The notes: generated from the letters alone by a model not told the origin. A DNA stretch of 38,738 nucleotides from a virus (IMGVR_UViG_3300042807_000094); one strand, 5' to 3'; counted from the first letter of the stretch, positions 1 through 38,738 are shown. Program-made: numbers and translations.

Positions 1-522
1 GGCTTTTGGTAATGCATATCTTGCATTTTTTCCAACCGTCATAGACGATACAACTCTACATGGATCTTGTGAAGCGTTGTCGCACTCGCAAGCAAGCCTT
101 ACATTTATACATCCCTTGGCTATATAATCGAGCATCTTGGCTACGATTGAGTTAACAGCGGTCTCATTCATTCCATTCTGTATCAGAGTACCGTCTAACG
201 CACTAACAAATAGCTCAGTCAATCGCTGTTGAGCTACTTCTGGCCCTAGGATAGCAATAAGCTTTACTATTTCCGGTGGATATTTGTTATTTTCTTGCGT
301 TGCAGACTCCAAAAATGGAGTAGCTTTTAGCCCAAAACATCCATTTGGATTGATTATCAAACGAAGTTTTAGCTCTTGTAGACTTGGAGTACAGCTAAAG
401 TTGTACTGTTTTGCCGTGTTTGCCAGAGCTAAATCATACGCAAAGTTATATGCCAACCCAGACCTTAAGGAAGAGGCATAAAACGAAGCCATAGTTGTGA
501 TAAAATCTGTACTAGAAGCCAT
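1..522 (-). CDS. Hypothetical, probable virion protein; partial, runs off the left edge (174 codons seen)
   Basis: Not in the ORF track. Hand translation from ATG at 522 gives MASSTDFITTMASFYASSLRSGLAYNF...RLACECDNASQDPCRVVSS...YALPKA with no stop to position 1. AAGG lies upstream and the start is 5 nt after the previous stop. Confidence 0.8.
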   Translation of the reverse strand, partial: MASSTDFITTMASFYASSLRSGLAYNFAYDLALANTAKQYNFSCTPSLQELKLRLIINPNGCFGLKATPFLESATQENNKYPPEIVKLIAILGPEVAQQRLTELFVSALDGTLIQNGMNETAVNSIVAKMLDYIAKGCINVRLACECDNASQDPCRVVSSMTVGKNARYALPKA

Positions 523-527
523 TTTGT

Positions 528-2678
528 TTACCTTGTCCTCTCGATTCTTGTTATGGTTGGTGCGTTTTCTGGTGGTTGTGTCCTGCCAGAACCCACTACT
601 CTGCTTGGGTTAATAGTGCCTGTCGGTGCTGGGCGTGACGACTCTACAAGTGGTACGCTTGGTAGTTCGAAGGTTTCTTCTACTCCAAAGTCCATATACT
701 TTTCTTCGCACGGAAGCTTAGTGTTACCGACATTTGTGTAGAAGTATTCATTCTCTAACACAACTAAATATGCATATACAATGTAAGTATAGAATCGATC
801 ACTCATAATCTGCGTATCGACATAGTTTACCACTTCTTCTTTAGTCGTGTTGAAGAACCACATTTCTTGTACAGGCGTTGCATTGCCTTGGTTGATAATA
901 CCATTATCGCCAAATAAAGTAGTGTATAAAGTTGTTTCTAATATTTCGTTAGTATTAGCTATAGCTGGAGCATTAACACCGGAGTATTTCACTACTTTGT
1001 AAGCAATGACTTCTTTGTGTGGCTTATCTCCTTTCAACATTTCTGGGTAGCTTCTACCATAGAACTTGACAAGATCTGCGATCTTTATATGCAATGCTGA
1101 TGTAGCCAAAGCATAAGCTGTATCTGGAGTATTGTCTCCACTGGTAGCGTAAGCAGATTTCGTCTTGTTGTTCAGGATGATGCTGTCTAATGGTAACGAG
1201 TCTACTGGTGAGATATATGTTCCAGTATAAACTGGTGATCTGATATTATTGAGCCTTTCACCAAGCTTCAAAACCCATTCGTAATATTCCCAGGATTTAA
1301 GCAGATCTCTACTCTCTTGCAATAAAAGAGATAGATATTTCTTTCCTCGCTTTCTAGTAGCGGTAGTTACCTTGAATGTACGGAAGTTGTTGATCTCCGC
1401 TATAGCTGGATTCTCTTGCAAGTGTCTCATTACAAGACCATCGTTTCTAGTTTCTTCTGTGGCACCACCGACAGGACCGGTTGGTTGAAGCTTGAAGTTT
1501 ATTCTAGCATAATATGGTAGCAAGGTTTGGAATGGATAAAACTTGTTTATTAAGGGTAATGTTTCGGATAAAACATAGATAACTTTTGAATCGAACTTAG
1601 AGTTTCTAAAGAAAACTGCAAGATTCTGTGCAAAACAGTCGAGTTCATTCTTGAGTTTTATTATTACTGGTTCGAGCTTATTGTTTAGAACATGTTCATA
1701 CATGTTTGCCAGTTTAGTTTCACCACCAAACTGGTTCAATCCTAGCTGAAGGGTGTCCTCTCTGATGATCTTCTCGTATTCCCTAGCTGTATAGTTGTGT
1801 ACAAACTCCACTGTCGCGTTGAGACTGAAATCTAAGTTAGACTCTATATTCTGTTCTACTTCTGTTAAAGTGGCGATTTCATTATCAAAGTTGCTATCTC
1901 TAAACACTTTTGCATTGTAGGTTAAAACATACGCCTGATTGGAATCAGTTGTTGGGGGAGCAGCACCACCGACAGGCTGTGACAAAGAAGCCCGTGTTTG
2001 TATCGGTCCAGTTAGCTGTTGGATCGCAGTTTCTAAAGCTTTTCCAAATGAAAGATAACTTAGATCGACGCCTATTGTAGAAAGTCTCTGAGTGGTCGGA
2101 AGCCCCGCATCTGTCAAAAGCAACATGGATAGTGGGGTTAAAGCTCCGACTTTCTGCGTTATTTGAGTATTAGCTGCGATTGTCGGGTCAACAATAGTAA
2201 ACGAAGATTCTATATCCTGTATTTTTAGAACATCGAAACCATATACCTTATTAACAGTCTGAGTAGGATCACCGTATTCATGGCCATACAGATACCTGTA
2301 CCAACATGCAGAACAATCTGGGTATGGTCCAAATCTCTGATCTGCTACCAGTGTAATGGGTGTAACGCTAATCGATGTTGGAATCGTCTTATAAGTCGAA
2401 AAGTTATAAGTACTTCCAAGCTTTATATCAAAAGGAAAAAGCTTCTTCTCGTTCCAATCTAAAGTAGATTTCTCGTTAACTACAAGATCCGAGTTATTAA
2501 CACCGGGATCTGCCTTGCCGTTTGGAAGTCTTGGATACCAATAGTTTCCGATTATTTGTCTAAATCTATCTTTGATATTTCTTTGGACGATATTCGGTGT
2601 GGTGGTGTCAACGGTAGGAAGAGTTCTCTGCTTATAGTTATTTTCGCAAACGAATACAAATCTTTGGGTTGCTTTCAT
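528..2678 (-). CDS. Hypothetical virion structural protein (716 aa) with a possible Fn3-like segment near the C-terminus
   Basis: Long ORF in the structural operon with SD-like AGGA upstream. YVDTQIMSDRFYTYIVYAY resembles the Fn3 'xxDT...YxYxVxA' strand pattern. Pro/Thr-rich tail. Confidence 0.55.
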   Translation of the reverse strand: MKATQRFVFVCENNYKQRTLPTVDTTTPNIVQRNIKDRFRQIIGNYWYPRLPNGKADPGVNNSDLVVNEKSTLDWNEKKLFPFDIKLGSTYNFSTYKTIPTSISVTPITLVADQRFGPYPDCSACWYRYLYGHEYGDPTQTVNKVYGFDVLKIQDIESSFTIVDPTIAANTQITQKVGALTPLSMLLLTDAGLPTTQRLSTIGVDLSYLSFGKALETAIQQLTGPIQTRASLSQPVGGAAPPTTDSNQAYVLTYNAKVFRDSNFDNEIATLTEVEQNIESNLDFSLNATVEFVHNYTAREYEKIIREDTLQLGLNQFGGETKLANMYEHVLNNKLEPVIIKLKNELDCFAQNLAVFFRNSKFDSKVIYVLSETLPLINKFYPFQTLLPYYARINFKLQPTGPVGGATEETRNDGLVMRHLQENPAIAEINNFRTFKVTTATRKRGKKYLSLLLQESRDLLKSWEYYEWVLKLGERLNNIRSPVYTGTYISPVDSLPLDSIILNNKTKSAYATSGDNTPDTAYALATSALHIKIADLVKFYGRSYPEMLKGDKPHKEVIAYKVVKYSGVNAPAIANTNEILETTLYTTLFGDNGIINQGNATPVQEMWFFNTTKEEVVNYVDTQIMSDRFYTYIVYAYLVVLENEYFYTNVGNTKLPCEEKYMDFGVEETFELPSVPLVESSRPAPTGTINPSRVVGSGRTQPPENAPTITRIERTR

Positions 2679-2698
2679 ATTTTAGATCCTACCATTGA

Positions 2699-7246: not shown

Positions 7247-10200
7247 TTATCTTACCCTAGTTTTAGGGGCTGGAGTAATGCCTGTTTCTACTGATTGGCC
7301 GGGAGTAGTAGGAGTAGCGGTTTGTTGTGGGACAGAAACTATAGTTGAAGGCTGTGAAATCCCGGTTGTGTTTATCTGCGCTCCAGTTACTCCGACAGAA
7401 GAACCAGCATTTATAACAGGACTTCCTACTATCTCAAAGTTCATATTTCCGAACTCTACGATTGAGAAGTTATCATATGGCCAGTTGTATGAATATCTCT
7501 CTTCTACGGCATTAGAACGTTTTCCGATCTGTGTCCTGAATCCTCTGAACCTTGGATCTGGATTTGATCTCTTACCTAGCTGCTTATCCTCAAAGTTTGT
7601 CTTGGCGCGTTGCTTCACTTTGAATACGAGCCACTTCATCTTTGAGTTTGCATTATCACCAGTTGTTCTGATCGCATCTAGGATTTCGTACCCACTCAAC
7701 GCATGACTTATAAAGCTTTCAGAAATCTCTGCCTTCGAAGCAGCTTCGGGTGGTAGATTCTGCCACATTCTTACGAGATCATTCTGAGTAAACGTGTGCG
7801 AGAACTCAAATATGTACATTGAAACGGGCGAGTAGTTTGAATCATCCTCGTCGTAGTTGTAGAAATCAAAAGTTGGTGGGAAGACGTATTTTTGCATCTT
7901 CTTGTACATATCAACCATTGATTGACCGGGGATAGCTGGGGCAGTTGGTTCATAGCTTGGATTCAAAGCTACTCTGCGCGCTTCAATAGCAAGCTTTCTA
8001 TCAAGCTCAAAGAACTTTCTCTTACCTTCACTTTCTACGAAAGGAACAGCTACAACAGCTTCGAAGACGGTCTTTTCTTTGCCAACGTTGCCAACTCTCG
8101 TAGACTTCTTGCGGAACTTAACAATATCCAACAATGAAGCCATCTCTGAGCTAGCGCCGTAAGCGTTCTTTATTGCTGTTGGCATGCTGTCTTTCAAGCG
8201 GTTATTGATCCAGACATCTTCGATTGGTGAAACTTCTAGGAAGATACCCTTATCTGGGGAGTCTGGTACTATACCGAACTGATGCCACATACCTACTGCT
8301 ACCGACTCAGAAGCGACAGTCGGAAGCGAGAGTGAAGAAGAACTAATAGAATCTCTGAAGTTCAAAACTGGAGTTTCAAACTTAGGCTGGATTACCCAGA
8401 TATGATCATTAGAAGTCTTATCTTCCTTGATGACAGTTGGGTTCCCATTGGCGTCAAACTCTACAGATTTTACCGGAATCTTTGCGAATAGATCAACTGA
8501 TGAAGTTAGTTGCATTGCAAATCTATTTGCATACTCACCATATGGGTGGCTATTGTATAGATTGCCTCTAGCCCAATCGGATCCAGAGTCCACTCTCCAG
8601 CAGAAAACATTGCTATTTCCAAAGATATCATCTAGTGTATGCGTAGTACTAGAGGCGCTAAAGATTACGTCTGCCCAAGCTTCTCCGTCATAGTATGGGG
8701 GAGTGAAAGCTAGATCGTATGCAAACAAACTATCTGGCCTTGCTGAGTTTGCGTAGGAACTGGTATCAATCCACTTTCTAGCAGCTACTGGAGGGCCGAA
8801 AGCTGATGGTCTAGAATACATTGTTAGACTTTCCCTCAAATCTGTTTGAGTGAAAGAGTTCTGGGGTGTAGGGTAGTTGTTGCTAAATGTTCTTGGAACA
8901 TTCGTGCTTCTACGCAGTCTAACACGCATTGAATAGTAAGTACCGGGTTTAAAACCATCAAAGGTAGATTGTGGCTCAGATACAAGGCTACTCATTTCGC
9001 CCTTATCCAAGAAGAAATCTACTACCTCTGCTAAGAAGTTATTAGCCATTAGCTCGTATAGATCATCTCCATTACCGTCCCAACTGGCGCTCAGATTCAA
9101 AGCAGAACTTGGGTGAGGCTCCATATCGAGGAATCTGACATCTTTTAGATAAGATTTGGGATTGTAGATAGCTTCAAATGGTACTCTAAAGTCAAATCCA
9201 TTTGTGCCCCCAGAACCCGTTCCTAACAGATAGTATCCTGTTAAACTTCCAGTTGTGGTAACAGTTTGTGTAGGGATTGGATCACCACTCAAAACGGCAT
9301 TCTGCATCTGTACGCGCTCAAATGAGGCTGTATAGATTGGGTAATCTACAGCTATACCAGACTTGATGCTGTTAAATAGAATACCGGGAGTAAACAGAGG
9401 AGCGTAGATTGGTCTTAGTTTAACGTTATCAGCACCTGCTGTTAGACTTGCGGTATCTGCGCCTCTTGTCTGAATGTAACTACCGTATGACTTAGAGAAC
9501 TGGAATGCTAGATCTACGGTTCTTTCAGATGGGTAGAAGCTGTCGTATGGAACAAACTTCTTGATTGCCTTAAAGCGTAGCTTAACTGCGTCTAGTTTTG
9601 TCACATCTTGTAGTTCGTTGATAGTTTCTTCTAGATTCTCAAACAGATCAGACGTTGCATATACCTTGTAGAAGTCTGTATCGGCACTACTTGAAGGTAC
9701 AGTTGTACTAGCTGTTAGCGCACAAACACCAAAGATATCAAAAGAAGCGGTATTTTCAGATAAGAAGTTACCTTGCTTAGACTTAACATAGTATTCGATA
9801 AAGTTAGAAATCCTGAACTCTGGAATAACTGTGAATGATTGGTTATGAGGGCGCAAATCTTCTGCAAACAACTTGTAGTTATCATAGAATGGTGTCAAAG
9901 CTTGACTTACAAAAGTTCCATTTGAGTTAAAGTAACCTGCTTTTTCGCCAGCTTGCCACTTAGTATTACCACCAAGAATCTGTGCGTTACCTAAAGAATA
10001 GGAAACTGGGAAGGTTCCAAGTGCGCCAAGAGAAGCAGTTGTCTCATTAATGATAGAGGTTTTAGGTGTGAAAGAATACGCAGACCCAAGAAGGTGTTTT
10101 CTGGCGTACAAAGGTGCCAATCTTAGAGAAGCTTTGGAATCTGTAGTTCCAGTATGAATCATTACATAGTTATTTTGTAGGATTCCTTCTCTGTAATTTG

Positions 10201-13200
10201 CGCCTTGTGAGTTGGTGACACCGAAAGTTAGAGTCGATACGGTTTCAAAGTTAGTAGAGGCATCTAGTGCCCACGAACTTTGACTAATCGCGGTCAAGGT
10301 ACCATTCGTAACCATAGATTTCTTAGCTACAAAACCCTTAGCATTTCTATCTGTTCTTGAATCGCGCCAGAAGTTATTATCAAAGTTAACTCTCTCACGC
10401 ATGATTCCGAGACTTTGGTATACTGCTTGTGGATATACTGTATCAGCTAGCAAGATATTCTTTAGTCGTAGCTTCTTGTTATTAGAAATAAAGCTCTTTA
10501 TTTGATTAACCTTACTCTTGCTTTGATTTGCCATTTCCAGTACTAGATTTAGCTCTTCGTTAGTGAAATGTGAAATCTCATTATTGAGTGAAAGATTAAC
10601 TAGAATATTGGAAGTTGAGTTAGGAGCTTGGAATAGTAATCCCATTGGGCGATTGTCAAGCTCAACTGCTGGTTCAACAAAAGAGTATGTTCTCTGGTTT
10701 GTTAAAGCCTTTGAAATAACAACGTTGCCATCGACTATGGTGACTTGATCGCCATATTTTGGAGTATGTGAGATGGTATTGGTATTCTTCAGCTTCTGAA
10801 TGTACTTCTTATCGGTATGACGTACTTGATACCAAGTAGACTTTGCAAACTTACCGCCTCGATTTGCTATTATGGAGTTAAGAATATAAGCATTGTTAGA
10901 GTTAATCGAGGATGAAATCAAGGTTGGATTCAAGTACCCACTAACACTCGCAGTTAAGCTTAAACCTAGTGTCATTGTGTCAATGTCAAATGGATCAACA
11001 ATATTTGTTACAACACCGTTAAATCCTGTTCTTATCTGAGAGTTGGCAACAACCGAGTATCCGGTAGTGATGCCGTCTACAAATCCGAAAATATTCTTAC
11101 CATTTGAGCTAGTTGCATAGCTGACAATAGAAGAAGCTGTGACGAAAGTTATTGCTGAATCGACACCAGTAGACGAAGAGAAGGTACCGTCAGAAGATAC
11201 GAAACCAGTTGGAACATCGCCACCGGTGGTAACAGGGAACTTATTGTAGGTAACTGCTGCGCCAGTAATCCAAGAGTAGTTTAGATCACTTCTTGGAATC
11301 TGGTATTGGACGAAATAGTTATCGGAGATCGAAGAGCTATAGAAAGCAGTATCAGTTTGCTTTAGAACTCCTAGTTTATTTCTATAAACACCGTGGAACG
11401 ATGCTGTACCGCTATAATCAGCAGCTACTGGTACCGAACCGCTAGTTAATCCATTGATCTCAGAACGGGTTGTTAAGAACGTCCTGAGTGGTAGTCTGAC
11501 GGATAGATTCCTGAATGGTAGAGCATTGTAAACGCTGTATTCGCCATGAGCGGCATCTAGACCGGGACCACCTAGGTTGTCACCCATTGTAGAAGGATCG
11601 CCGGGGGCTGAGAAGCGTTGTACGATCACGTTCTTATTCGTGGTGCGTGCTAGTTTCGTGTAGTCAGAAGTACCACTAACGGCCCACGACCCGGTTGCAG
11701 AAGCACTAAATGGAGTGTCGTTAAACGATAGATCGTTTTCACTTCTACCGGTTGTAGCAACAATATCTAGAGCAAGATTGTAGTTACCAGCAACTGTGGA
11801 AGTGGAACCAGTAGAATGTGCTATATTTGCAAGGTTTACTGGCCTCTTTGCCATACCATCTCTAGAGACTGTAGATCTTGGTTTTGTAATACTACGATTT
11901 GTTATAGTGATGACACCAGAAGATAGATTCATATCATAAGCTTCTGGTCTAGTGTTAGAGTCGTATTGGTTTAACTCAACGTGCCTATGGGCATGACCAC
12001 CGACATATCTTTCGGTAAATGGACCTTGCATTGGGATCTCAAAGTCCATGTCATAGACATCTGAGTGGTGACCAACGATATCGAATCGCTTACCAGAACC
12101 GAATCCGGCAACTAGCTGTGCTTGGTAGCCGGTATTTGGCACACCAGCAGAAGCACTCATAAATGTGAAAGGAAGTACAGAGTATGCTCCAATCTGTGTT
12201 GTGCCAAAAGTGGCACGGAACTTCATTCTTACTTTCTGTAGTTCTAGAGGGGTTTTGACGGGTTCTAGAAGTTTAATGGTGCTTGTATCTTTACAATCTT
12301 CTTTTTCCTCAAAGTTATCAAGTACCAAGGTTTCATTTGCGAGCTTAGCGACAATGGACTTCCATACTTTGGTAACGAATCCCTTTGGGGCGTTCAAGCC
12401 AACAAAAAGAACTTGTTCTATAATCTGATAGAACTTCGAATCCAGAGACATATCGAAGTTATAAAGCTGTGTAAACTTACGATTAGCGTAATCGCTTCCG
12501 TAATATGCAGTACCATCTGGTTGTGATAGAAGTGGGCCAGAAGCAGAAGTGTGCGTAGTTATGGTTCTACGGATAGTTTCTCTCTGTTCATCAACAACAG
12601 CCTTACCGGATGTAATAACGGAACCATTTCTTTCTGCTCTACGATTCCACCAATAGCAGTTTTCATTTTCAACATTTGCTACCGGATGATAGCCTCTATT
12701 CCAAGGATACAGAAGTTCCGAAATACCAAAGACACTTCCTTCGTAGTTTCGGTTTTTGTACTTTAGAATCGGGTAGTTGTACTTGTAGTGATTTCTTTCG
12801 AGAATATGACTTTCAATAACACTGTTAACTCTGTCTGAGGCATCAGCGGTTAGTGGAACTAACTGCCTCAACATTTCAGATAATGAAGCATCGATCCAAC
12901 GGTAATATTCGAAGAACTTATCAACATCTACTGTATTCGAAATGTCTTTAAAGTAGAGTTCTCTAAGCTGACGTAGCTCTTTGTGTTCGTCCCTGTAACG
13001 TTGTACTGGTTGATGATATAGATTATTGAACTCTTTCAAAGAAGAGAACATATTCAACATATCTTTAGAAATATTCCTGAATGGACTCTTTTCAAATGAG
13101 AAGTAGTAGTTCACAGGAAGTATTTCTTTGGTGAATACTTCGTCATCGGTATCTGGTGTCTTTACCAGATCATAACTGTTGATTTCATCAGGTAGAGTTG

Positions 13201-16162
13201 TTTCTGCGAAACTGATGAACTCTTTGGTGACTACATCAGAATCAGAAGCTGGGAAGTTGTGTGCAGTAGCGTTGTAAATAACATTTGTTACCTTAGATAC
13301 GGCACCAAACAAGTTTTTATCATAAGAACCAGATGTAATATCAAATACTTGGAACTCACCGCTTGTGTTGGATGAAGTTACAGAACTGAAATCCCAATGT
13401 AGGGCAAGAGTCTCAATCTCTGGAATATATGTACCGGTTACTGCGTTCTGATTCAAGAACGCATTTCTAGATGGATTCTGGGTGCCAAAACTAAATGGAT
13501 TTTGTGCGTGGAAATCGATGGAGCTTGTTTGAAGTGGCAAAACCCAATGACGTAGTGAACCGAGTCTGATATCACTTCTGTCGATCACGCTTCCGCTAAA
13601 GTTTGTATTCCTAGCGCCTGCGTAGTATCTCTTTGGAGATGAAGCAAGTATTTTGCCTGCTGTATTGGACAAAGAAGCTGTTAGGTAGAAAGAATCCAGC
13701 ACTATGTCTAGTTCTTTATTCACGCCATAAAATGCAAGAGTATAGGTTGTGTTTGCGCTTCCAGTGATTGCTTCATAGTGTAAAGCTTTGTCTGGTGCTA
13801 ATGTTACGCCAAAGTTCCACTTCTTGTTGTCGTATACTGAATAGAATACACTACTCGTTACTTTAACATCGGTCGTACCGTTAACTGCACCCGTAAGAAG
13901 GAAGTAAACATCTTTTGATTCAACGCCAGTTCGAACAGCGTATATACGCAATGTCGTGTCGGCGCTTTGGAAGGTTAGATCAGATGTGCTAGAAGTGTTG
14001 GGTAGATGGAATCCTGCAACCGAGGAAGTAACGAAATCGGTGTAGAAGTATCCAGCCTCACTAAACAGTGGCTTCTTAGCGAATATTACTTCCGCTTCGG
14101 TAGTAAAGCCTAGCTCTTTAAGAGTGTAATCTACTAAGTTGCCTGAAACAAACGAGTTAGCTCCAGCATTATGGTAGATTGTAGCAGCAAAGTTTTCTGG
14201 CTTATTGAAGTTAATAAACTTCTTACCTGCTGCCGTAAAGTCATACCTATTGTCATAAATATATCTTGTATTGTTTGGATAAACAGATACATTTACTACG
14301 TTATCATCAATACCATATGTTCTAATAAGGTTTCTAAATGATTTATCAGTTCCTTTAGACTTATAAATGTATACTAGATTGTTGTACACATTTTGATATA
14401 TAGAGTTCCTGATATCCTCTAGTTCTTCTTCAAAACGATTTGTATTATCTACATTTAGAATCTTTTCGTATAGAGATGAGTTTTCGAAGATTAAAGGAGT
14501 AACAAAACCTTGATTTGCTACTTGATATTCTGCAAATGGTAATGGTTTTTCAAAACTAGAGCTTAAGTATTCTTTGTTTTTGAGTTTACTCAAGCTTGAG
14601 ATACCAGCGTATAGTTCATCTAGCTGGTATGACATGATCTGGGTTAGGTTAAAAAGATCGCCGCCATTTGAACCATCTTCTGGCCTATCTTCCTCGATAA
14701 TCCACGATGGCATCGAGTAATATAGCGATGCATTATTCTTAATATCGTATTCACTACCGGAAGCGATTAGTTCGCCATATAGGCTTGTAATACTTGGATG
14801 GTCTGCTCTAATAATCGGATCTTGGTATTCTGTTGCGGTAGCTCCTGCCAATACCATAGCAGAACCGGTATTTCTGGCTGCTGAGCCGGGATATCCATAC
14901 CATGTACCATTTGTGATACGGCCAGAGTAATCGAGTACAGTCGAGTCTACAGCGGATACGCCTGTGATACCTTCGTTGAACTTGAAGTAGACGCCGAGTT
15001 CTGTATTTGAAACATCAGTGTTTGTACCACCAGCAACTTGGTATTTATAATAGAAGTTGATTTCTTTTTCGTTTCTGACAGACTTCCAGTACCTAAACTC
15101 GTCAAGTGAACCAGATAGCTTGCCGTAACCAAGCATGTTGATTCCGTTGAAAGTAGAACCAGAAGGTGATGTACGGAGAGCGCCGATATTAGCAGACAAA
15201 GCACCGTCAACAATACCCATAGCTTTACTGGCAAAAACGTTAGAGTATTCCCTGTTACCGTTAATATATGCTTTAGCCTCTAGATTGCTGCCAGTGTTCT
15301 GGAAGGTAAAGGCATAATGACGCCATGTTCCATCTGCCAATGAAGATGTTGTAAAGCCACTAATCGAAAGGGCTTGGGATACGGTTGTCGAACCCGAAGA
15401 GATTTCGAAGAAGAAAGTAGATAGTCCGTCAGCAGATCCAGTAATACCAATGAGAAGACGACCATAATCAGTACTAGACGAGACTGCTGAGTTCCAAAGA
15501 TCGAATACGATTTCTTTTTCTGTCGAGGAAGTTGCGAACCCGTCTTTCTTTAACCAGAACTCTACCGCCATGCCATAGGACGGATTCATCAATAGATTTG
15601 TAGTTCTTGTACCGGTTCTTCCGTCTGCCGCTTGTGAAGCGGTAGTATAGACATCTAGTTCAAACTTATTTGCGTCATCAAAGGTATTAGCAAGCGGACT
15701 TCCGATCATACCCTGCGAGGCTGTATGAGGTCCACCAAAGAAATAGATGTACTCTTTGCTAGTTGGGTTACCGTATCCCCCAACTTTAGCACCAGAGAAT
15801 GTGTAGTTGTTGGAAGAAAAGTTGATGTATCCATTTGTTCTTGGATACTTGTGGTTCAACAGATATAGATCTAGATATGTGCAGTTCGATAGATAAAGAT
15901 TTAGCTCTTTCCTTGAACCGTCATAAGGAAACTCATTTACAATATTCGTTACAGAAGCAGAATAGTAGTTTTCTGCTGATCCGAACTTAACGAAGTTCTT
16001 TGGATCGGAGAAGTCCACCAGTGGTATGAACTTCTCAATAGCTTCGAACTTAGCTGCGATATTATCTTTAGACTCTGCATAAAGATAAACGTCGCTGTTT
16101 GTGTTGTCAGCTACCGGAAACGTACCTTGTTTTTGTAGTCCAAATAGATCTTTTATGCTCAT
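7247..16162 (-). CDS. Giant baseplate wedge protein (T4 gp7/P2 gpI-like motif) with LamG/concanavalin-A-like domains (2971 aa)
   Basis: LamG signature AVEFWLK...WRHYAFTF...AYING...IGA...LSGSLDEFRYW...LGVYFKFNEG...VLDYSG and a second LamG-like unit (KKWNFGVT...YAGA...LRHW...LALHWDF). NLVYIYKSKGTDKSFRNLIRTYG matches the KGT motif of gp7/gpI wedge proteins. Lies downstream of gp25 and gp6. Confidence 0.7.
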   Translation of the reverse strand: MSIKDLFGLQKQGTFPVADNTNSDVYLYAESKDNIAAKFEAIEKFIPLVDFSDPKNFVKFGSAENYYSASVTNIVNEFPYDGSRKELNLYLSNCTYLDLYLLNHKYPRTNGYINFSSNNYTFSGAKVGGYGNPTSKEYIYFFGGPHTASQGMIGSPLANTFDDANKFELDVYTTASQAADGRTGTRTTNLLMNPSYGMAVEFWLKKDGFATSSTEKEIVFDLWNSAVSSSTDYGRLLIGITGSADGLSTFFFEISSGSTTVSQALSISGFTTSSLADGTWRHYAFTFQNTGSNLEAKAYINGNREYSNVFASKAMGIVDGALSANIGALRTSPSGSTFNGINMLGYGKLSGSLDEFRYWKSVRNEKEINFYYKYQVAGGTNTDVSNTELGVYFKFNEGITGVSAVDSTVLDYSGRITNGTWYGYPGSAARNTGSAMVLAGATATEYQDPIIRADHPSITSLYGELIASGSEYDIKNNASLYYSMPSWIIEEDRPEDGSNGGDLFNLTQIMSYQLDELYAGISSLSKLKNKEYLSSSFEKPLPFAEYQVANQGFVTPLIFENSSLYEKILNVDNTNRFEEELEDIRNSIYQNVYNNLVYIYKSKGTDKSFRNLIRTYGIDDNVVNVSVYPNNTRYIYDNRYDFTAAGKKFINFNKPENFAATIYHNAGANSFVSGNLVDYTLKELGFTTEAEVIFAKKPLFSEAGYFYTDFVTSSVAGFHLPNTSSTSDLTFQSADTTLRIYAVRTGVESKDVYFLLTGAVNGTTDVKVTSSVFYSVYDNKKWNFGVTLAPDKALHYEAITGSANTTYTLAFYGVNKELDIVLDSFYLTASLSNTAGKILASSPKRYYAGARNTNFSGSVIDRSDIRLGSLRHWVLPLQTSSIDFHAQNPFSFGTQNPSRNAFLNQNAVTGTYIPEIETLALHWDFSSVTSSNTSGEFQVFDITSGSYDKNLFGAVSKVTNVIYNATAHNFPASDSDVVTKEFISFAETTLPDEINSYDLVKTPDTDDEVFTKEILPVNYYFSFEKSPFRNISKDMLNMFSSLKEFNNLYHQPVQRYRDEHKELRQLRELYFKDISNTVDVDKFFEYYRWIDASLSEMLRQLVPLTADASDRVNSVIESHILERNHYKYNYPILKYKNRNYEGSVFGISELLYPWNRGYHPVANVENENCYWWNRRAERNGSVITSGKAVVDEQRETIRRTITTHTSASGPLLSQPDGTAYYGSDYANRKFTQLYNFDMSLDSKFYQIIEQVLFVGLNAPKGFVTKVWKSIVAKLANETLVLDNFEEKEDCKDTSTIKLLEPVKTPLELQKVRMKFRATFGTTQIGAYSVLPFTFMSASAGVPNTGYQAQLVAGFGSGKRFDIVGHHSDVYDMDFEIPMQGPFTERYVGGHAHRHVELNQYDSNTRPEAYDMNLSSGVITITNRSITKPRSTVSRDGMAKRPVNLANIAHSTGSTSTVAGNYNLALDIVATTGRSENDLSFNDTPFSASATGSWAVSGTSDYTKLARTTNKNVIVQRFSAPGDPSTMGDNLGGPGLDAAHGEYSVYNALPFRNLSVRLPLRTFLTTRSEINGLTSGSVPVAADYSGTASFHGVYRNKLGVLKQTDTAFYSSSISDNYFVQYQIPRSDLNYSWITGAAVTYNKFPVTTGGDVPTGFVSSDGTFSSSTGVDSAITFVTASSIVSYATSSNGKNIFGFVDGITTGYSVVANSQIRTGFNGVVTNIVDPFDIDTMTLGLSLTASVSGYLNPTLISSSINSNNAYILNSIIANRGGKFAKSTWYQVRHTDKKYIQKLKNTNTISHTPKYGDQVTIVDGNVVISKALTNQRTYSFVEPAVELDNRPMGLLFQAPNSTSNILVNLSLNNEISHFTNEELNLVLEMANQSKSKVNQIKSFISNNKKLRLKNILLADTVYPQAVYQSLGIMRERVNFDNNFWRDSRTDRNAKGFVAKKSMVTNGTLTAISQSSWALDASTNFETVSTLTFGVTNSQGANYREGILQNNYVMIHTGTTDSKASLRLAPLYARKHLLGSAYSFTPKTSIINETTASLGALGTFPVSYSLGNAQILGGNTKWQAGEKAGYFNSNGTFVSQALTPFYDNYKLFAEDLRPHNQSFTVIPEFRISNFIEYYVKSKQGNFLSENTASFDIFGVCALTASTTVPSSSADTDFYKVYATSDLFENLEETINELQDVTKLDAVKLRFKAIKKFVPYDSFYPSERTVDLAFQFSKSYGSYIQTRGADTASLTAGADNVKLRPIYAPLFTPGILFNSIKSGIAVDYPIYTASFERVQMQNAVLSGDPIPTQTVTTTGSLTGYYLLGTGSGGTNGFDFRVPFEAIYNPKSYLKDVRFLDMEPHPSSALNLSASWDGNGDDLYELMANNFLAEVVDFFLDKGEMSSLVSEPQSTFDGFKPGTYYSMRVRLRRSTNVPRTFSNNYPTPQNSFTQTDLRESLTMYSRPSAFGPPVAARKWIDTSSYANSARPDSLFAYDLAFTPPYYDGEAWADVIFSASSTTHTLDDIFGNSNVFCWRVDSGSDWARGNLYNSHPYGEYANRFAMQLTSSVDLFAKIPVKSVEFDANGNPTVIKEDKTSNDHIWVIQPKFETPVLNFRDSISSSSLSLPTVASESVAVGMWHQFGIVPDSPDKGIFLEVSPIEDVWINNRLKDSMPTAIKNAYGASSEMASLLDIVKFRKKSTRVGNVGKEKTVFEAVVAVPFVESEGKRKFFELDRKLAIEARRVALNPSYEPTAPAIPGQSMVDMYKKMQKYVFPPTFDFYNYDEDDSNYSPVSMYIFEFSHTFTQNDLVRMWQNLPPEAASKAEISESFISHALSGYEILDAIRTTGDNANSKMKWLVFKVKQRAKTNFEDKQLGKRSNPDPRFRGFRTQIGKRSNAVEERYSYNWPYDNFSIVEFGNMNFEIVGSPVINAGSSVGVTGAQINTTGISQPSTIVSVPQQTATPTTPGQSVETGITPAPKTRVR

Positions 16163-16164: not shown

Positions 16165-17625
16165 CTACTCTACTCTAAACTTGAAAGTCTCGGGTTGTTC
16201 TACATAAGATCCGATAGATCCATTGTAATAAGAGAACTTTATAGCATAACTATATCCGGCCTCAAAAAGATTCATATCTAAATCGAAATAGTTTCCTTCT
16301 GAGTCGTAGGAAAGAGCCGTATGTTGTGTACTACCAGTTCCGTAAGCTATTACTTCAAGATCGTCAATAACGCGATAAACCTTGTAAGATCCGCTGTCTA
16401 TTGTGGCTGCAACAGGGGTAGCCGTTGCAATCGTATATACGGTAGGAGTCCAGTTTCTAGGTCTTGCGTAAACTCTAAATCTTTCTGTTTGCCCCCTTGT
16501 ATAAGTAGGTTTGAGATTTGTTATTTGAGTAGTAAACTGTTCTGCGTTGACTGAAGATTCTCCAACGAGAACTTGTGGTTCGATAGAACCTGTGAAATAT
16601 TGAGTAGTTAGATTTCCGTTGTGCCATACGTCGAAAATCGTTTCTAATGGGGTTGTGGCAGCGGTTAGCGCAAAGCTAGCCGAGTAGATACCCGTAGACA
16701 CCCAACCGCCTGTAACGACCGTTGGAGAGCCTGCTGTAACGTTTACACCATCGGTCACAAGGGTCAATGCCGAGCCGGTCGGAACGGTCGAGCCAGAGAA
16801 AACCGATACATAGATGTTACCCGTTCCAACGGCTGGAATATTCCTAAGAATACCACGATGATAGTTGTAGAAGTAGATTGTATTTAGGTTTTCGGCTGCG
16901 GTGGAGAGGGAACTGCTGTAATAAAAGTTAGTCCTCTTGTCTTTTCTTGCGTTATTAAAGCGCGCTTCGATTACTGGTCTCTTGAAGAAAAACTCAGAAG
17001 ATCTTGCAAAAAACTTCTTGGTGTAAAGTGAAGTTGTTGGTGCGCTTTCAGCAGAACCAGATATCTTAATCAAAAGACCGTTATTTGGTTTTGTGCCAGC
17101 TAACCATTGTTCTACTATGTCTGATACGTCTACTTGTAAATCTTGTGTACCATCAAATCCAAAAGACTGTGTGTAAAAAGGAGTAGCATAGTAATCTCCC
17201 CCTTGAGATACCCATCCAGCAGTTGAACTAGCACTTATCCAGTTAGATGTATCAGAGTCTGAATATTCATCGAGATCTAAGCCGCGACCTTCATCCCATG
17301 ATCCACTAATCGCTCTTATTTCAAGAGAGTAGTTCCTTGGAAGTGAATAAGCGTGTGGGGCGTTAAATAATCTTAGATAGTGGCTAACATTTCCAGATGC
17401 GGGTAGTGTGCCTGCGGCTCTGTCTAGAGTCATCTGGTCTGTATCAAACTGCACCAAGATTCTGCTCTTCTCTATCGAAGAGGTGGAAGCCTGTCCGTAG
17501 ATTACATAGGTTTCCAACACATCTGCTAGTCCGGTATTTGAACCGGTAGCCCTGTTGACTAAATCACCCTTGAATGCATTAGTGATTGTGTTGTCCTTGG
17601 TAGCATTGTAACGCTTGATACTCAT
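16165..17625 (-). CDS. DNRLRE/CBM96-like beta-sandwich virion protein (486 aa)
   Basis: SRILVQFD...YLRLF...SWDEG...W...GW...GGD...VDVSDIVEQWL...NNGLLIK...F...RPVIE is the typical pattern. TAATG coupling to the gp6-like gene. Confidence 0.65.
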   Translation of the reverse strand: MSIKRYNATKDNTITNAFKGDLVNRATGSNTGLADVLETYVIYGQASTSSIEKSRILVQFDTDQMTLDRAAGTLPASGNVSHYLRLFNAPHAYSLPRNYSLEIRAISGSWDEGRGLDLDEYSDSDTSNWISASSTAGWVSQGGDYYATPFYTQSFGFDGTQDLQVDVSDIVEQWLAGTKPNNGLLIKISGSAESAPTTSLYTKKFFARSSEFFFKRPVIEARFNNARKDKRTNFYYSSSLSTAAENLNTIYFYNYHRGILRNIPAVGTGNIYVSVFSGSTVPTGSALTLVTDGVNVTAGSPTVVTGGWVSTGIYSASFALTAATTPLETIFDVWHNGNLTTQYFTGSIEPQVLVGESSVNAEQFTTQITNLKPTYTRGQTERFRVYARPRNWTPTVYTIATATPVAATIDSGSYKVYRVIDDLEVIAYGTGSTQHTALSYDSEGNYFDLDMNLFEAGYSYAIKFSYYNGSIGSYVEQPETFKFRVE

Positions 17626-19433
17626 TATTCAGCCACTCCTGCTATGTCTAGATCTGTAAACTTCATTTCCATACAGACGTTCTTTGGAACGATTAGGTAT
17701 GTACCATCAACAGATAAAGCCTCGGTAAAATCAAAAGTATTAGAAGAATAAACTCCATCGATTCTTGGCATTAATCTTACCCTTTTTGCGTCGATAACAC
17801 CACGAACTTGTTTGTTGAGGACCGAATAGATCTCCGAGATGGATACCATTTGACCGAAATAGCCGGGTTTGGAGAAATGTTCTGCCAACTTAGCGCGGGC
17901 ATCAGATAGTACCATTTCTTTATCGTAAGCTTTATCAACTAGAATACTGAAATCAACCCCGAAGTTTACGACAAGACCATCCAAGATATCAACAGTATCA
18001 TGAATCATCTTGTAACGGTTAATCCAGTTCTTAAGATTATCCTTCAAAAGCCCGGAAGGTCGTGCTAGCTTACCGTTGAAGTCTTCGGTAAGTACATAAA
18101 GATTGATGTTTCTCTTAAAAGAGTTACTGTCCTTATAGGCTGAGGCTCTAGCTATGGCACCAAACTTAGAAGGCATCGCATAGCAAATAGATTCCATATC
18201 TTGCTGTGTTACTGCCCTGTTCTGCGATGCAAAAAACGAAGCGGATCTGACCTTGATCTCGTCGGCGCTTGGTAAGGAAGCTTGCCCAACGATTGGTTCA
18301 TCATTGTTTATTTCAAGACTAGCGCGGATTGTTCTGACTGTATCGGTGTTTAAAAGATACTCATCTTTGAACTCTAGTATGGGCGTTATGGCTCTTGTAA
18401 GCTTACCAGTTGGTACGTTGACTGTCGTGCTGTCATTATAACGATAAGTCACAGTCAAAGTTGTGTTTGATGGTGAAACGCCTAGCTTATCAGATTGCAG
18501 TAGCTTATTTGGGTCGAAGCTCTGCTCTGTTTCATAGCTACGGCCATAGCGATTTAAAAGGATTGTATTTGGTTCTGCGTAACCAGTGTTTATTAGTTCC
18601 GATTCGCCACCGAATCCAAACTGCAAATAAGAAGTTCCATCTTGCATTACTTCAAAAGTAAATCTTCTTGGAACAGCAAAAGGACGCAAAATAGATGGAA
18701 CAACAACGTTATCCCCGCCCTTATTCTCTATTTCCTTGTAGATAACATTCTGTGTTAGATAATCCACCTCATAGTATTCGTGCCCTTCGGCATCCATGAC
18801 TTGACTGATCTCGTTAATGTTTCTACCGGTTAGCATTACACGTTTGAAACGCTCATAATCTGCTACTGAGATTACCTCGCTTCTAAACCTGCCAGAAATA
18901 ACCACACCATTCTTTCTAAGAGCATAGAATGTGGGTTGTCCTGTAGCTGGATTGATCCTTGCTGGAACGATGTCGGTATCAACTGAGTCGAACCTGACAT
19001 CATCAAGCAAAGTAAATACCGCATTACTTTGTGCGCCGAAGACCGAGTTCTTCTTTAGAACAGGGATAAGCGATGGATCCGGTCCTGAAGTTGGAGAAAC
19101 GGATGATGCTGGCACTAGAACGAAGAACTGTGCAATACCGCTAGAAGTCGATGGACCCTTAAACTTAAATCCGTTTTGTTCGGCTAACTTCCTTACGTTT
19201 CCGTATTCTACGGCTGTTGGTAGAAATGATTCGTTTGCTTGATAATCGATATAAAACGATAGAATGTCACCAATATAAGAAACGCTGTCAATCATAAGCG
19301 AGCCAAAGCTAGCTTCGTTGAAATCTTTATAAGAATCTGGGTAGTACCTCTTTGCAAACTCGATAAGATCAGCTTTAATCTTTTCAAAGTCACGCGAGGT
19401 ATATCTAATAAGTGGCTTCTTCATATTTGACAT
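17625..19433 (-). CDS. Baseplate wedge subunit, T4 gp6/P2 gpJ-like (602 aa)
   Basis: YTSRDFEKIKADLIEFAKRYYPDSYKDFNEASFGSLMIDSVSYIGDILSFYIDYQANESFL and ASQNRAVTQQD are hallmark gp6/gpJ motifs. Adjacent to gp25. Confidence 0.92.
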   Translation of the reverse strand: MSNMKKPLIRYTSRDFEKIKADLIEFAKRYYPDSYKDFNEASFGSLMIDSVSYIGDILSFYIDYQANESFLPTAVEYGNVRKLAEQNGFKFKGPSTSSGIAQFFVLVPASSVSPTSGPDPSLIPVLKKNSVFGAQSNAVFTLLDDVRFDSVDTDIVPARINPATGQPTFYALRKNGVVISGRFRSEVISVADYERFKRVMLTGRNINEISQVMDAEGHEYYEVDYLTQNVIYKEIENKGGDNVVVPSILRPFAVPRRFTFEVMQDGTSYLQFGFGGESELINTGYAEPNTILLNRYGRSYETEQSFDPNKLLQSDKLGVSPSNTTLTVTYRYNDSTTVNVPTGKLTRAITPILEFKDEYLLNTDTVRTIRASLEINNDEPIVGQASLPSADEIKVRSASFFASQNRAVTQQDMESICYAMPSKFGAIARASAYKDSNSFKRNINLYVLTEDFNGKLARPSGLLKDNLKNWINRYKMIHDTVDILDGLVVNFGVDFSILVDKAYDKEMVLSDARAKLAEHFSKPGYFGQMVSISEIYSVLNKQVRGVIDAKRVRLMPRIDGVYSSNTFDFTEALSVDGTYLIVPKNVCMEMKFTDLDIAGVAE

Positions 19434-19473: not shown

Positions 19474-19848
19474 CTATCTAATCACAAGATCTAATATTTG
19501 TGCATTGCTTGATGGAAAAGTATATTCCATCTTAATCTGTATGGTGTTCGGTTCTTCGTCATTGGAATATACACCAAGGCTTTTGATAGTTACGAATGGC
19601 AAATACGTATTTAACTGTTTAATGATTCTATCTCTAATATTGATCTTGGTTATCTCTGTAAGTGGCTCAAAGAGATAGTTTCGTATCCCTACGCCGAAGT
19701 TAGAATCCATGATTCTTTCGCCGGGAGATGTAAAGATAATCATTTTGACATTTTGCTTTACAACAGATGCTAGATTCTTGTTTAAAGCATATGGTCCGTC
19801 TGATGGGCTTAATTGAAGCGGAAGCTTTACAGAATATCCAGTAGCCAT
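19474..19848 (-). CDS. Baseplate wedge/sheath initiator, T4 gp25/gpW-like (124 aa)
   Basis: VKQNVKMIIFTSPGERIMDSNFGVGIRNYLFEP...IIKQLNTYLPFV is the GPW_gp25 signature. Confidence 0.93.
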   Translation of the reverse strand: MATGYSVKLPLQLSPSDGPYALNKNLASVVKQNVKMIIFTSPGERIMDSNFGVGIRNYLFEPLTEITKINIRDRIIKQLNTYLPFVTIKSLGVYSNDEEPNTIQIKMEYTFPSSNAQILDLVIR

Positions 19849-34137: not shown

Positions 34138-34995
34138 TTACTCCTTTGTATTTTGAACACTAAGTGTTTGTGACACAGCCGAAGGATTGGAAGCCCAATC
34201 CCACATTTCTCTTATTTCTTTATTGTATTCCCACGATTGTTCTAAAATAGAACAGTTAACATTGTGACTGTTTAAAGTAGATATCAAAGAGTTGATATCT
34301 TTAGGGAAGCAAGTTCCTCCATAGCCCAGAAAACCATCTGGACCGGGGACACTTGTATGGGATGAACCGATCCTTGGATCGGAGATTATCCCAGAGACTA
34401 CAGTACGATAATCAAATCCCATCTTATCAGCTAGCTGGAATAAAACGTTGAAGTAACTGACTTTGAGAGCTAAAAAGCTATTTGAGAAATACTTTATCGC
34501 TTCAGATTCGTCAGAAGAAGTCAACAAGATAGGGATCTGGACCCCGTACTTTTGCTGGTATAGCTCTTTCACCGTCGTGGCAAGCTCGATGGGACCACCC
34601 ACTACATTCCTGCTAGGATTTGCAAAATCATTAACAGCATTTTTTGCAGTTAAAAACTCTGGACTGTGGACGATCTTCAGATCTGGCCTGTTGGCGGATA
34701 TCGATTTCGTTGTTCCGATTGGAACAGTAGACTTTATAATAAATAAGCACTTTAGATTATTTGGAAGATTATTAAAGAAATCCATTAGTATTGTTAGATC
34801 ACAGCCACCACCTTGTGGACTTACCATTGGAGTTGGCAAGCAAACAAAAACGAAATCGCTTTGTAATACTTGTCCAAGAGAGTTGTATGTTCTTGCGGGC
34901 GATGCATCGTAGACACTTGTTTCGAAAGAATCTTTGAAGTTCTGATACACCGCATTTCCCACAAACCCGTTACCGACTATTCCTACTCTATGCAT
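34138..34995 (-). CDS. ugd: UDP-glucose/GDP-mannose dehydrogenase family, short form without the C-terminal domain (285 aa)
   Basis: GIVGNGFVG Rossmann motif, FVCLPTP, IIKSTVPIGTT, SPEFL, EAIKYFSNSFLALKVSYFN, DPRIG and catalytic GYGGTCFPKD. Confidence 0.88.
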   Translation of the reverse strand: MHRVGIVGNGFVGNAVYQNFKDSFETSVYDASPARTYNSLGQVLQSDFVFVCLPTPMVSPQGGGCDLTILMDFFNNLPNNLKCLFIIKSTVPIGTTKSISANRPDLKIVHSPEFLTAKNAVNDFANPSRNVVGGPIELATTVKELYQQKYGVQIPILLTSSDESEAIKYFSNSFLALKVSYFNVLFQLADKMGFDYRTVVSGIISDPRIGSSHTSVPGPDGFLGYGGTCFPKDINSLISTLNSHNVNCSILEQSWEYNKEIREMWDWASNPSAVSQTLSVQNTKE

Positions 34996-35893
34996 TCTTG
35001 TTTGCCTCGATCCATGTATCTAGAGTCACTGTTGGATTCCATCCAAGTAAATCTTTTGCTTTTGTATTGTCGCATAGACTATTTCTAGCCTCCCCGAGTC
35101 TAGGAGGGATATATTCAACTTCGCCACCAATCATTTTAGCTATTTCAACGATTGAATAGTTCTTACCAGTACCGATATTAAACAGGTTGCCTAGTATTGC
35201 CTTATTCTGTAAGAACGCTGCCTTAATATTAGCTTCTACTACATCGTCTACATGTGTAAAATCTCTTCTTTGAAGTCCATCTCCAACTATTGTCATGCTC
35301 TTTCCTTCTGCAACTTGTTTCAAGAATAATCCGATTACTGGAGCGTATTGTCCTTTCGTCGGTTGCCTATTCCCATAAACGTTGAAGTATCTGAAGGATA
35401 CAGTCTCTAGTCCGAATAGCGTATAATACATTTTACACAACTCTTCGCCCGCTGTTTTAGATACGGAATAAGGATTCAAACAATCTTTTGGCATATCTTC
35501 ACGATAAGGAATATTGTTACTAAGCCCGTAAGCAGCAGATGTGGAAGAATAGACAACTCTCTTTACCCTCTGCTCTCGGGCGGCTTGTAAGACGTTACAA
35601 GTTCCAAGAGTATTCACCCTTACGGCGAATAGCGGATTATTTATTGCTGGCTGTATCCTCGATTCCGCAGCTAAATGGAAAACAACATTTACACCTTCAA
35701 ATAATGGTAGAATATTGTCATAATCACAAATATCCAGTTTATGATTCTCTGCTAGCTCGTTCCAGTAAAACGTTTCATGAGCCTCAGATGACTCGTTATC
35801 CACAGCTACTACGCTATGCCCGTCTTTTATTAGTCTATCTACTAAGTTTGAACCAATAAATCCTGCCGCGCCTGTTACCAATACTCTACTCAT
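34988..35893 (-). CDS. NAD-dependent nucleotide-sugar epimerase/dehydratase, extended SDR (GalE/WbpP-like; 301 aa)
   Basis: [32 protein letters not shown] (YxxxK), [21 protein letters not shown]. Confidence 0.92.
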
Positions 35894-36861
35894 TGCTTTA
35901 GTCCTCTAAGATCCTCATCATACATCATTCTAGCGAGTTCTTTAAACTTTACTTTAGGTTCCCATCCAAGTTCTTTTCTAGCTTTTGAATAATCCCCGAG
36001 CAAATATGGCACTTCGTGCGGACGATATAATCTGGCATCTACTTCGACATATTTATCGACATCCAGTTCAGCATGTTCAAATACTTCATGCAAAAACTCG
36101 CGAACTGTATGAGTCTCACCAGTAGCTATGACATAATCATCCGGCTTGTCTTGTTGTAGCATTAGCCACATTGCTTCGACATAATCACCAGCAAATCCCC
36201 AATCACGTTTGGCGTCTAAGTTTCCTAGGAAAAGTTTATCTTGTAATCCAGCTTTGATTCTCGCTGCTGCTAGCGTGATCTTTCTGGTTACAAAAGTTTC
36301 GCCGCGTCTAGGAGATTCGTGATTAAAAAGAATCCCAGATGTACAAAACATACCGTAGGACTTGCGATAGTTCCTCATAAGACTATGGGCAAATACTTTT
36401 GCGTTAGCATAAGGTGAGGCAGGCATTAAGACGCTATCTTCGTTGAATGGATAGTTTGGGTTATCACCGTACATTTCTGAGGATGATGCTTGATAAAGCT
36501 TTACTTCTTTTACATCCCTAAAGTTTCTTATAGCTTCAACAATCCCTAAAGTGCCGTTTACTATAGTGTTGATTGTAGAGGCTGGGACATCGAAAGAAAC
36601 TCTAACGTGCGATTGAGCAGCTAGATTGTACACTTCATCTGGTTTGTACTTTTGAAGCAGCCTGTAGAATGACATGGGATCATCCAACTCAAAGTATTCT
36701 AGCTTGAAGTTTCTATTTTCAAACACAGAATCGATTCTCTCAGTTGCTATCAAAGAAGTCCTTCTCTTTAGGCCAACGACTCGATAACCCTTAGATAATA
36801 GCAACTCTGTTAAATAAGAGCCGTCTTGTCCAGTTACACCGGTTATAAATGCTGTTTTCAT
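35890..36861 (-). CDS. gmd: GDP-mannose 4,6-dehydratase (323 aa)
   Basis: [72 protein letters not shown]. Confidence 0.97.
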
Positions 36862-36862
36862 A

Positions 36863-37786
36863 TTATTCGATATTCCTATTATTCAAAAACCATTTTATAG
36901 TTTGTTCCAATCCAGCTCTCAAATCCGTTTTTGCTTCAAATCCGAGAAGTTCGCGAGATTTTGTAAGATCTAGACTTCTTCTTGGCTGCCCATCTGGTTT
37001 CGTAGTGTCATAGACAATCTCTCCAGAATATTTCATTATATCGCAAATGCAAGACATAAGCTCAGAGATGGTTATTTCTTTACCAGTTCCAATATTTATA
37101 GGATCTGGAGGGATCTGCTTTTCCAAAGCTAGTTCTACAGCTTCGGCACAATCTGGTGCATACAGGAACTCGCGAGAAGCTTTTCCTGTTCCCCATAATA
37201 TAACCTCTTTTTGTTTAGATTCAAGAGCTTTTTGTATTTTTAATATAAGTGCTGGTATCACATGGCTTGTTGTGAGATTAAAATGATCATATGGCCCATA
37301 CATATTAACAGGTATTAGGTTTACTCCGTTGAATCCGTATTGATAATGGTAGTTTTCTAGCAAACTCATAAGAGTCTTTTTAGCTATTCCATATGGAGCA
37401 TTGGTTTCTTCTGGGTAGCCGAGCCACAAATCCTCTTCTCTAAACGGCACCTGTGTGTGCTTAGGATACGAACATACAGTACCAAGAAGCACAAACTTTT
37501 CAACGTTATGTATCATAGAACTGTGTATCATGTTGATACCCATAGCTAAGTTCTCGTACATAAACTTACCGGGATTCAGCTTATTGGCACCTATACCGCC
37601 GACTGCTCCTGCGGCATGAATAACCAAATCCGGTCTTATATGCCTCAACATATCTTCGCATTCATGTTGTTGTATAAGGTTGTGTTGTTTCGAACCAATA
37701 GATGTTACTTCATACTTGTCCGATAATCTTTCAACTATATTTTTGCCAACAAATCCTGTGGCACCTGTCAGAAGAACTTTTTTCAT
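36863..37786 (-). CDS. fcl: GDP-L-fucose synthase family epimerase/reductase (307 aa)
   Basis: [62 protein letters not shown]. Start moved to ATG 37786 (MKKVLLTG), which overlaps the methyltransferase stop as ATGA. Confidence 0.95.
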
Positions 37787-38361
37787 TTCTTTATCGCTTT
37801 CCACGAAGAAGGTGGGCATTCTGTAACAGTTGTGTTTTTATCAACGAAAAACTCATCTACTGCCTTCTTAACCCCCGGCCAGTCATCACCAAGGTAATCA
37901 TGACCAGCTATTATTCCATTTCTCTTTACTTTTGGATACCAAGCCTCTAAATCTTTCTTTACAGCTTCGTATGAATGATCAGCATCTATAAAGATTATAT
38001 CGATTGTTTCGTTTTGAAACATTTCCGACGCTTCAACCGAATCTTTCTTTATTATATTTACATAATCATCAATCTCAAGATGTTTCAAATTTTCTTTGAA
38101 ATGGTCCAGCAAGCTGACCTGAAGGGAGTCTATCATACCTCTATGCCCTGGGTCGCCAGCGGTACCCTTAAAGGTATCGATTGCAAATAAAGTTGGTTTT
38201 TTATTGCTTTGTTTTAAGTCGGTTGCTAAAAAGGATATTGATTTACCTTTCCATACACCAACTTCAACAAAAGTTTTGCTATCGGTTAATAAGCTAGAAA
38301 ACTCAGAATATAGATCTTTATAATCAAACCATCCGTGTATATCTTCATAGCTTGTTATCAT
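37783..38361 (-). CDS. Class I SAM-dependent methyltransferase, Methyltransf_24-like (192 aa)
   Basis: FVEVGVWKGKS, AIDTF, IDIIFIDADHSYEAVKKDLEAWYPKVKRNGIIAGHDY. Confidence 0.9.
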   Translation of the reverse strand: MITSYEDIHGWFDYKDLYSEFSSLLTDSKTFVEVGVWKGKSISFLATDLKQSNKKPTLFAIDTFKGTAGDPGHRGMIDSLQVSLLDHFKENLKHLEIDDYVNIIKKDSVEASEMFQNETIDIIFIDADHSYEAVKKDLEAWYPKVKRNGIIAGHDYLGDDWPGVKKAVDEFFVDKNTTVTECPPSSWKAIKK

Positions 38362-38738
38362 TCATCTATCCTCTTCTTTATTGTAGTTTGATAACTTCCC
38401 ATCTATACCAGAATATTCAGAATATTTTGGCCTATAGTCTTCTCCAAGCCAGCCAACAGTTTCTGCCAAGGTTCTACTGTTACTTGGCGACCCGTCATAG
38501 AGTGAGAAGTCTTTTAGCTTATCGCCATGACCGAGTTCAACCAACTCTTCCCATAACTCAGTACCGGGAAAGGGAACGCAATCACTTATTTGCCAATGAA
38601 CTCTATTATTGTTCTTCCTGCCCAAAGCTTCTAGTTCTTTTAAGATCTCCTGATCTCTTTCCCAACTTCCCGCCTTTTCACCGGGAAGGTTCTTCATTGT
38701 TGTAAAATGAAACTCCATATTAGAGAAGTTAGTCACAA
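38362..38738 (-). CDS. C-terminal end of a probable radical SAM protein (partial; starts beyond the right edge)
   Basis: HFTTMKNLPGE and VPFPGTELWE resemble the GxPGE and PxPGTxL motifs that end radical SAM barrels, including B12-dependent ones. The CxxxCxxC motif is not in the window. Confidence 0.55.
   Translation of the reverse strand, partial: VTNFSNMEFHFTTMKNLPGEKAGSWERDQEILKELEALGRKNNNRVHWQISDCVPFPGTELWEELVELGHGDKLKDFSLYDGSPSNSRTLAETVGWLGEDYRPKYSEYSGIDGKLSNYNKEEDR

Follow-up and report, generated by a model that had tools for sequence, protein, structure and literature searches.

Why should a phage genome made up mostly of A and T contain almost no AATT? The question is raised by the stretch of DNA analysed here, a window of 38,738 nucleotides (A 27.6%, T 32.5%, GC 39.9%) from the ~179-kb genome of a T4-like freshwater myovirus. 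A sequence-only reading had found AATT at 10195, 19811 and 38088, expected a few hundred copies, a loss of roughly 100-fold, and named three possible agents: a host restriction system, a nuclease of the phage itself, and ligands of the DNA minor groove. These three sites are exactly the ones present, with no others in the window. The loss of AATT is real, strong and selected. We believe avoidance of host Type II restriction is the best reading of it, and probably the right one, with a host enzyme that we infer.

The phage and the window

The virus record containing the window, G000, is 81% complete. We filled its gap with contigs of the same species (ENA and JGI), which rejoin G000 position 1 at 100% identity and give a composite genome of 179,360 bp. 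The structural and replication genes of the phage are of T4 type (gp23, portal, terminase, sheath, baseplate, bS21, DnaE), and it also has a class II RNR, ThyX and 12 tRNAs. An integrase is absent among its Pfam hits. There are glycosyltransferases and many unannotated genes, so wholesale modification of the bases is possible. Shine-Dalgarno sites are used by the phage genes (AGGAG, 15 vs 0.7). The metagenomes bearing the phage are aquatic, wastewater, wetland, soil and subsurface samples from 13 studies, with no RNA datasets among the listed holders. It had been hoped that the missing word would help name the host, but the host was not identified from it; bS21 homologs, cluster names and the Atlas were uninformative as well. 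The features of the window are these:

1-38738, the whole window, purged of AATT (G000:C1:58671-97408, minus strand)
1-32373, minus strand, baseplate/tail structural module with very long ORFs
7247-16162, minus strand, 2971-aa structural gene with a Laminin_G_3 domain
10195-10198, first residual AATT, within the 2971-aa gene
17625-19433, minus strand, gp6-like wedge, in the baseplate/tail module
19474-19848, minus strand, gp25-like baseplate wedge gene, in the baseplate/tail module
19811-19814, second residual AATT, within the gp25-like gene
34138-38736, minus strand, nucleotide-sugar module
37783-38361, minus strand, 192-aa Methyltransf_24/TylF-like O-methyltransferase gene
38088-38091, third residual AATT, within the O-methyltransferase gene

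The sugar module encodes UDP-glucose/GDP-mannose dehydrogenase, epimerases, GDP-mannose 4,6-dehydratase and the O-methyltransferase. The last is of a family other than those of the DNA methyltransferases and belongs to the sugar cluster. Together with G000:C1:49169-59047 the module forms a big nucleotide-sugar/glycosyltransferase cluster that includes a B12 radical-SAM gene. The cluster is much exchanged among strains; G001 has other genes there and is still AATT-poor. Elsewhere in the genome the 12 tRNA genes lie in the early region (L001:2592-10427), where tRNA-Gly contains one residual AATT (7133). About ten related genes of 60-73 aa with MKYQKGDL-like starts stand in tandem at L002:4674-6760, and G000 begins with a further set of small repeated genes. 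A 336-aa gene at L191:19440-20450 has fused Pfam matches to PMM and Acb5 (PF26761).

The loss is carried by codon choice

Base composition predicts 317 copies of AATT in the window. A maximal-order Markov model predicts 205 (O/E 0.015), and shuffling synonymous codons within the window's genes predicts 262 (O/E 0.011), with a minimum of 235 over 100 shuffles. The three copies seen against 205-262 bear out the size of the loss first proposed. Since O/E is far below 1 and the shuffles do not reproduce the loss, neither outcome that the sequence-only reading gave as counting against it is what we find. All reading frames are affected, with 2, 1 and 0 copies observed against 90, 91 and 80 in the codon shuffles. 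The structural genes (2 in 32 kb) and the sugar genes (1 in 4.6 kb) are both depleted, and the composite genome has 49 copies against 914 expected. No other tetramer comes close: CATG, the second lowest in the window, has an O/E of 0.60, AATA, AATC and AATG are common (1.30-1.36), and the other palindromes singled out earlier (GATC, CTAG, TTAA, ATAT, AGCT, TCGA, GGCC, CCGG) run from 0.72 to 1.20.

The loss is achieved by synonymous codon choice in all three frames. In the core genes Asn before a codon starting with T is encoded by AAC in 360 cases and by AAT in two, whereas elsewhere AAT is favoured, 1144 to 699. Lys, Glu and Gln before TT follow the same pattern (361 vs 2), and Ile after A is ATT in only 2 of 547 cases. 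It is the exact word that is lost. Adjacent words are normal or raised, the flanks of the residual sites are mixed, and neither the degenerate target RATY nor gapped AA-N2..7-TT is depleted.

A comparison with the non-avoider G003 makes the same point through 18 orthologous genes. None of the 109 AATT sites in G003 is present in G000, and none of the 72 at identical amino acids was kept. Control words in the same comparison were kept at rates of 26-51% (among them AGCT 27/53, GATC 19/42, TATA 20/55). The replacements took synonymous routes, and the bases that changed differ from frame to frame. What is under selection is the word and not the protein, and a single mutational hotspot does not explain it. 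The idea of an AATT-specific agent that has selected over a long time is supported; the signal survives codon shuffling in every frame.

Other purged words

AATT is not the only word removed. The window is also nearly without CCWGG (4 vs 32 expected; 11/158 in the composite) and about two dozen GC-rich 6-bp restriction sites, among them CAGCTG (0 vs 13; 0/22 in the composite). Twenty-four listed restriction sites, some of them nested, have zero copies in 179 kb; absent words include CTGCAG (0/23), CGATCG (0/21), GWGCWC (0/54) and GACNNNGTC (0/18). Counting hexamers of the composite only where at least 7 copies were expected, O/E falls below 0.3 for 23 of 59 palindromes and 14 of 1993 others, so that palindromes make up 23 of the 37 depleted hexamers. 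GGATCC, AAGCTT, TCTAGA and GATATC occur at normal frequency. Avoidance of orthodox Type II sites is established in lytic dsDNA phages (PMC6286503), and by that standard the combined loss of AATT and hexamers bears the mark of orthodox Type II restriction. Dozens of other restriction sites have gone the same way as AATT, and of the three agents first proposed host restriction is the best fit.

Some words are lost regionally. AGCT is nearly gone from the small early genes (G000:C1:1-26500; L001, L002; codon-shuffle O/E 0.086) and is at 1.08 elsewhere. ATAT and TTAA are at ~0.3 in early and replication genes and near normal in structural genes, and in L378 ATAT is at 0/58. Entry order, module history and timed protection are candidate reasons.

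Relatives

The loss of AATT is common to four loci with 98% identical terminase. A sister group, with terminase 92-93% identical, has AATT at 0.66-0.78, and in five of its six loci TTAA is at 0.00-0.05. The terminase tree makes the AATT and TTAA groups sisters with strong support; because it is rooted at the midpoint only, we claim no order of events. Other clade members are without AGCT, GGCC, CGCG, ACGT, TCGA, GGWCC or GATC, and most are without any 4-mer loss. Eight loci (L020, L079, L048, L056, L018, L065, L177, L258) are each fully without a different 4-bp palindrome, the absent words being AGCT, GGCC, CGCG, ACGT, TCGA and GATC. Most of the lost GC-rich hexamers are common to AATT avoiders and non-avoiders. 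A shared hexamer set with a differing 4-mer suggests related hosts that are one 4-cutter apart.

The AATT-rich island

The remaining sites are unevenly placed. A 3-kb accessory island (C1:26989-29975) with genes of 503, 328 and 92 aa holds 28 of the 49 in the composite, and its codon-shuffle O/E is 0.83. The 503-aa gene is 71% identical to one that a relative of normal AATT content (111/131) has in the slot between clpP and cpn60, and in the studied phage that slot is occupied by a resident gene, a distant paralog without AATT. Contigs of other studies have the complete island, its first gene alone, or nothing. We considered an assembly chimera and reject it, since the island is 99.9% identical in an ENA assembly and is bridged by other studies' contigs. 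The 328-aa gene (L002:9650-10636), accessory among strains, has protein-kinase-like motifs by eye (Gly loop, VxK), and its sole match is a PHROG of unknown function.

The island is imported from non-avoiding phages. Being present in some strains and absent in others, it shows that AATT is tolerated today. In strains from three other studies it persists with 15-28 sites at about 99% identity, so present selection must be weak or offset. G001 has a comparable 298-aa insert with 18 AATT sites, and in G002 AATT is nearly confined to imported or low-identity patches. AATT density follows the residence time of genes, from 0.04-0.08 per kb in core genes to 0.44 in small early genes and 9.4 in the island. 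From the island and the insert it follows that AATT marks recent imports and that dozens of sites are survivable now.

A Dam-family methyltransferase

Contigs of the same species carry a D12/Dam-class gene of 284 aa (L277:14022-14876) in the part missing from G000; it is optional among strains. The incomplete G000 itself has no PF01555 or PF00145 methyltransferase. The protein has the PF02086 domain, motif I and DPPY (E 7.5e-26 to DpnM). In EcoDam R124 fixes base 4 of GATC and K9 helps read base 1 (PMC4417163). Aligned to EcoDam and DpnM, the phage protein has M in place of K9 and Q in place of R124 and keeps the position-3 readers; it thus lacks the conserved K9 and R124 of a GATC-specific Dam, and its specificity is probably something other than GATC.

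Since the family tracks AATT depletion in other phages, it may methylate AATT, a target we favour slightly. Cyanophage S-RIM2 (NC_020859) carries the same subfamily at 53% identity, and in the gp6-gp7 region its AATT is 0.19; five related cyanophages that lack the subfamily, several of them on the same host strain, have 0.78-0.87. L243, chosen for another reason, has the gene and AATT at 0.22. Among 22 words AATT is the lowest across de-duplicated carrier loci, a modest association (median 0.71 vs 0.91 and 0.86, with p 4.5e-6 and 1.7e-3, ignoring kinship and genome region), most carriers being mildly depleted (0.29-0.98). In S-RIM2 (NC_020859, L282 and L372) AATT lies at 0.19-0.27, and this cyanophage has a second Dam-like gene without GATC-reading residues. 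Searching genome collections with the methyltransferase returned orphan copies, from Actinomycetaceae and from a Klebsiella scaffold, and at the one locus inspected there was no adjacent nuclease. Our literature search, partial in its coverage, turned up no publication on phages avoiding AATT, nor any on the methyltransferase of S-RIM2.

Alternative explanations

We think it unlikely that a phage-encoded nuclease, possibly packaged in the virion, cuts AATT in host DNA and that the phage purged its own sites accordingly. A family with a restriction-endonuclease-like N-terminal core is indeed present:

L191:10708-12282, 524-aa resident gene between clpP and cpn60, candidate nuclease
L002:8061-9572, 503-aa island paralog of the same family

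The family is clade-wide, with >167 homologs and no Pfam, and its clpP-cpn60 allele is either swapped or fast-evolving. The core E...D...SxK is conserved, with E120, D158, S167 and K169 invariant. A model of the island paralog has as its top Foldseek match the restriction endonuclease 3NDH (probability 0.93, weak E of 0.077), with HincII further down the list, and its nearest named Atlas family is RE_Eco47II (0.85, a lead only). In a wide structure search with this 503-aa protein the matches were filled by its C-terminal helix; the single-sequence fold of the resident copy has a pLDDT of 40. Between the resident gene and its counterpart in a non-avoider identity is 31%, against 87-88% for the adjoining clpP and cpn60, which fits swapped specificity, and the island copy starts with a leader found on other probable capsid-internal proteins. 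That the phage has a restriction-like system of its own, a capsid-loaded PD-(D/E)XK nuclease that shreds host DNA, with its allele swapped by lineage (AATT here, TTAA in the sister group) and an optional AATT methyltransferase for self-protection, strikes us as improbable. If it were true, genome-wide word loss would follow the weapon of the phage and not the defence of the host. Most phages with the family are without any 4-mer loss, and L276, the nearest relative of the resident copy, has AATT at 1.06. A phage that makes such an enzyme in every infection should hardly bear 49-57 sites, of which several lie in core genes, or islands of 18-28 sites, and strains lacking the methyltransferase should bear them least. 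Nor would it account for any of the other purged words. The proposal of a phage nuclease is disfavoured by the tolerated islands. A conserved HNH gene occurs in non-avoiders too.

The phage's own methyltransferase could drive the loss if m6A at AATT attracted a methylation-dependent host defence or were otherwise costly. The contrast between S-RIM2 and its relatives, the rank of AATT in carrier loci and the state of L243 all agree with this, but they are also expected if gene and depletion are parallel answers to one host enzyme. L380, a 93% identical strain without the gene at the locus, is equally depleted (AATT 1 vs 29 expected), and most carriers are mild. These two facts make the methyltransferase an optional second answer, not the cause; we give the contrary view little credence. 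A mutational or repair bias specific to the site is less credible still, and so is an RNA-level cutter of AAUU. A transition at the inner A/T pair solves two of the three frames, but the third, just as empty (2 vs 254), has its solution at the outer bases, which largely refutes a bias, and the heavy preponderance of palindromes among the purged words indicates dimeric DNA enzymes and not RNases. Minor-groove binders of the netropsin/distamycin type favour AATT. They also bind A-tracts and words such as AAAT and ATTT, which are normal in the phage (AAAA 0.90, AAAT 1.06, ATTA 1.09, TAAA 1.09), and in the sister lineage the absent word is TTAA, not AATT. We reject them as next to impossible.

Probable host restriction and its implications

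Any AATT within a gene can be removed with no change of protein, by AAT|T to AAC|T or xAA|TT to xAG|TT, and in the third frame, xxA|ATT, by ATC or ATA or by a change in the codon before. Selection has fixed such changes in nearly all long-resident genes. Recent imports keep their AATT, probably because the cutter is confined to some of the hosts or is met only at times, and in strains with the Dam-family m6A methyltransferase the remaining and imported sites may be shielded, supposing that it reads AATT. AATT systems are known: M.Tsp509I makes A-m6A-TT (PMC3287169), and AATT methylation is reported in aquatic MAGs (PMC8919816).

Restriction avoidance is already a known phenomenon, but this case is unusually well resolved. 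Its ~30-word purge fingerprint would predict the methylome of the phage's host, the change between AATT and TTAA in sister lineages would be a record of host-defence turnover, the island serves as a natural experiment, and AATT density dates gene imports. It also draws attention to a large uncharacterised subfamily of phage proteins, annotated Dam and without GATC-reading residues, that may be AATT-specific.

Comparison with known systems

MluCI, Tsp509I, TasI, Sse9I and TspEI recognize AATT whatever its flanks, just as the phage has lost it; MluCI/Tsp509I-type systems are tied to the phage by this specificity only. The phage methyltransferase shares its fold and motifs (DPPY) with T4 Dam, EcoDam and DpnM (PF02086) and differs from them in having M and Q at the equivalents of K9 and R124; the usual role of orphan Dam/D12-class methyltransferases in phages is protection from host restriction. 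As in the bS21-encoding freshwater myoviruses (Chen et al. 2022, PMC9723584), bS21 lies beside the terminase, portal, prohead protease and capsid genes, but here it shares a strand with its neighbours and Shine-Dalgarno sites are in use. Flavobacterium phage immuto and Microcystis phage Mel-JY01 have a baseplate wedge about 30% identical to that of the studied phage and, unlike it, normal AATT (0.97 and 0.99).

The closest parallel is with the phages of Rusinov et al. 2018 (PMC6286503), who found site elimination complete or almost so in about a tenth of viral genomes. Both show near-complete synonymous loss of short palindromic Type II sites. Unlike those cases, the word here is the all-A/T site of a 4-cutter in a 58% AT genome from which ~900 sites were removed, and the word avoided has changed between AATT and TTAA in sister lineages whose terminases are 93% identical.
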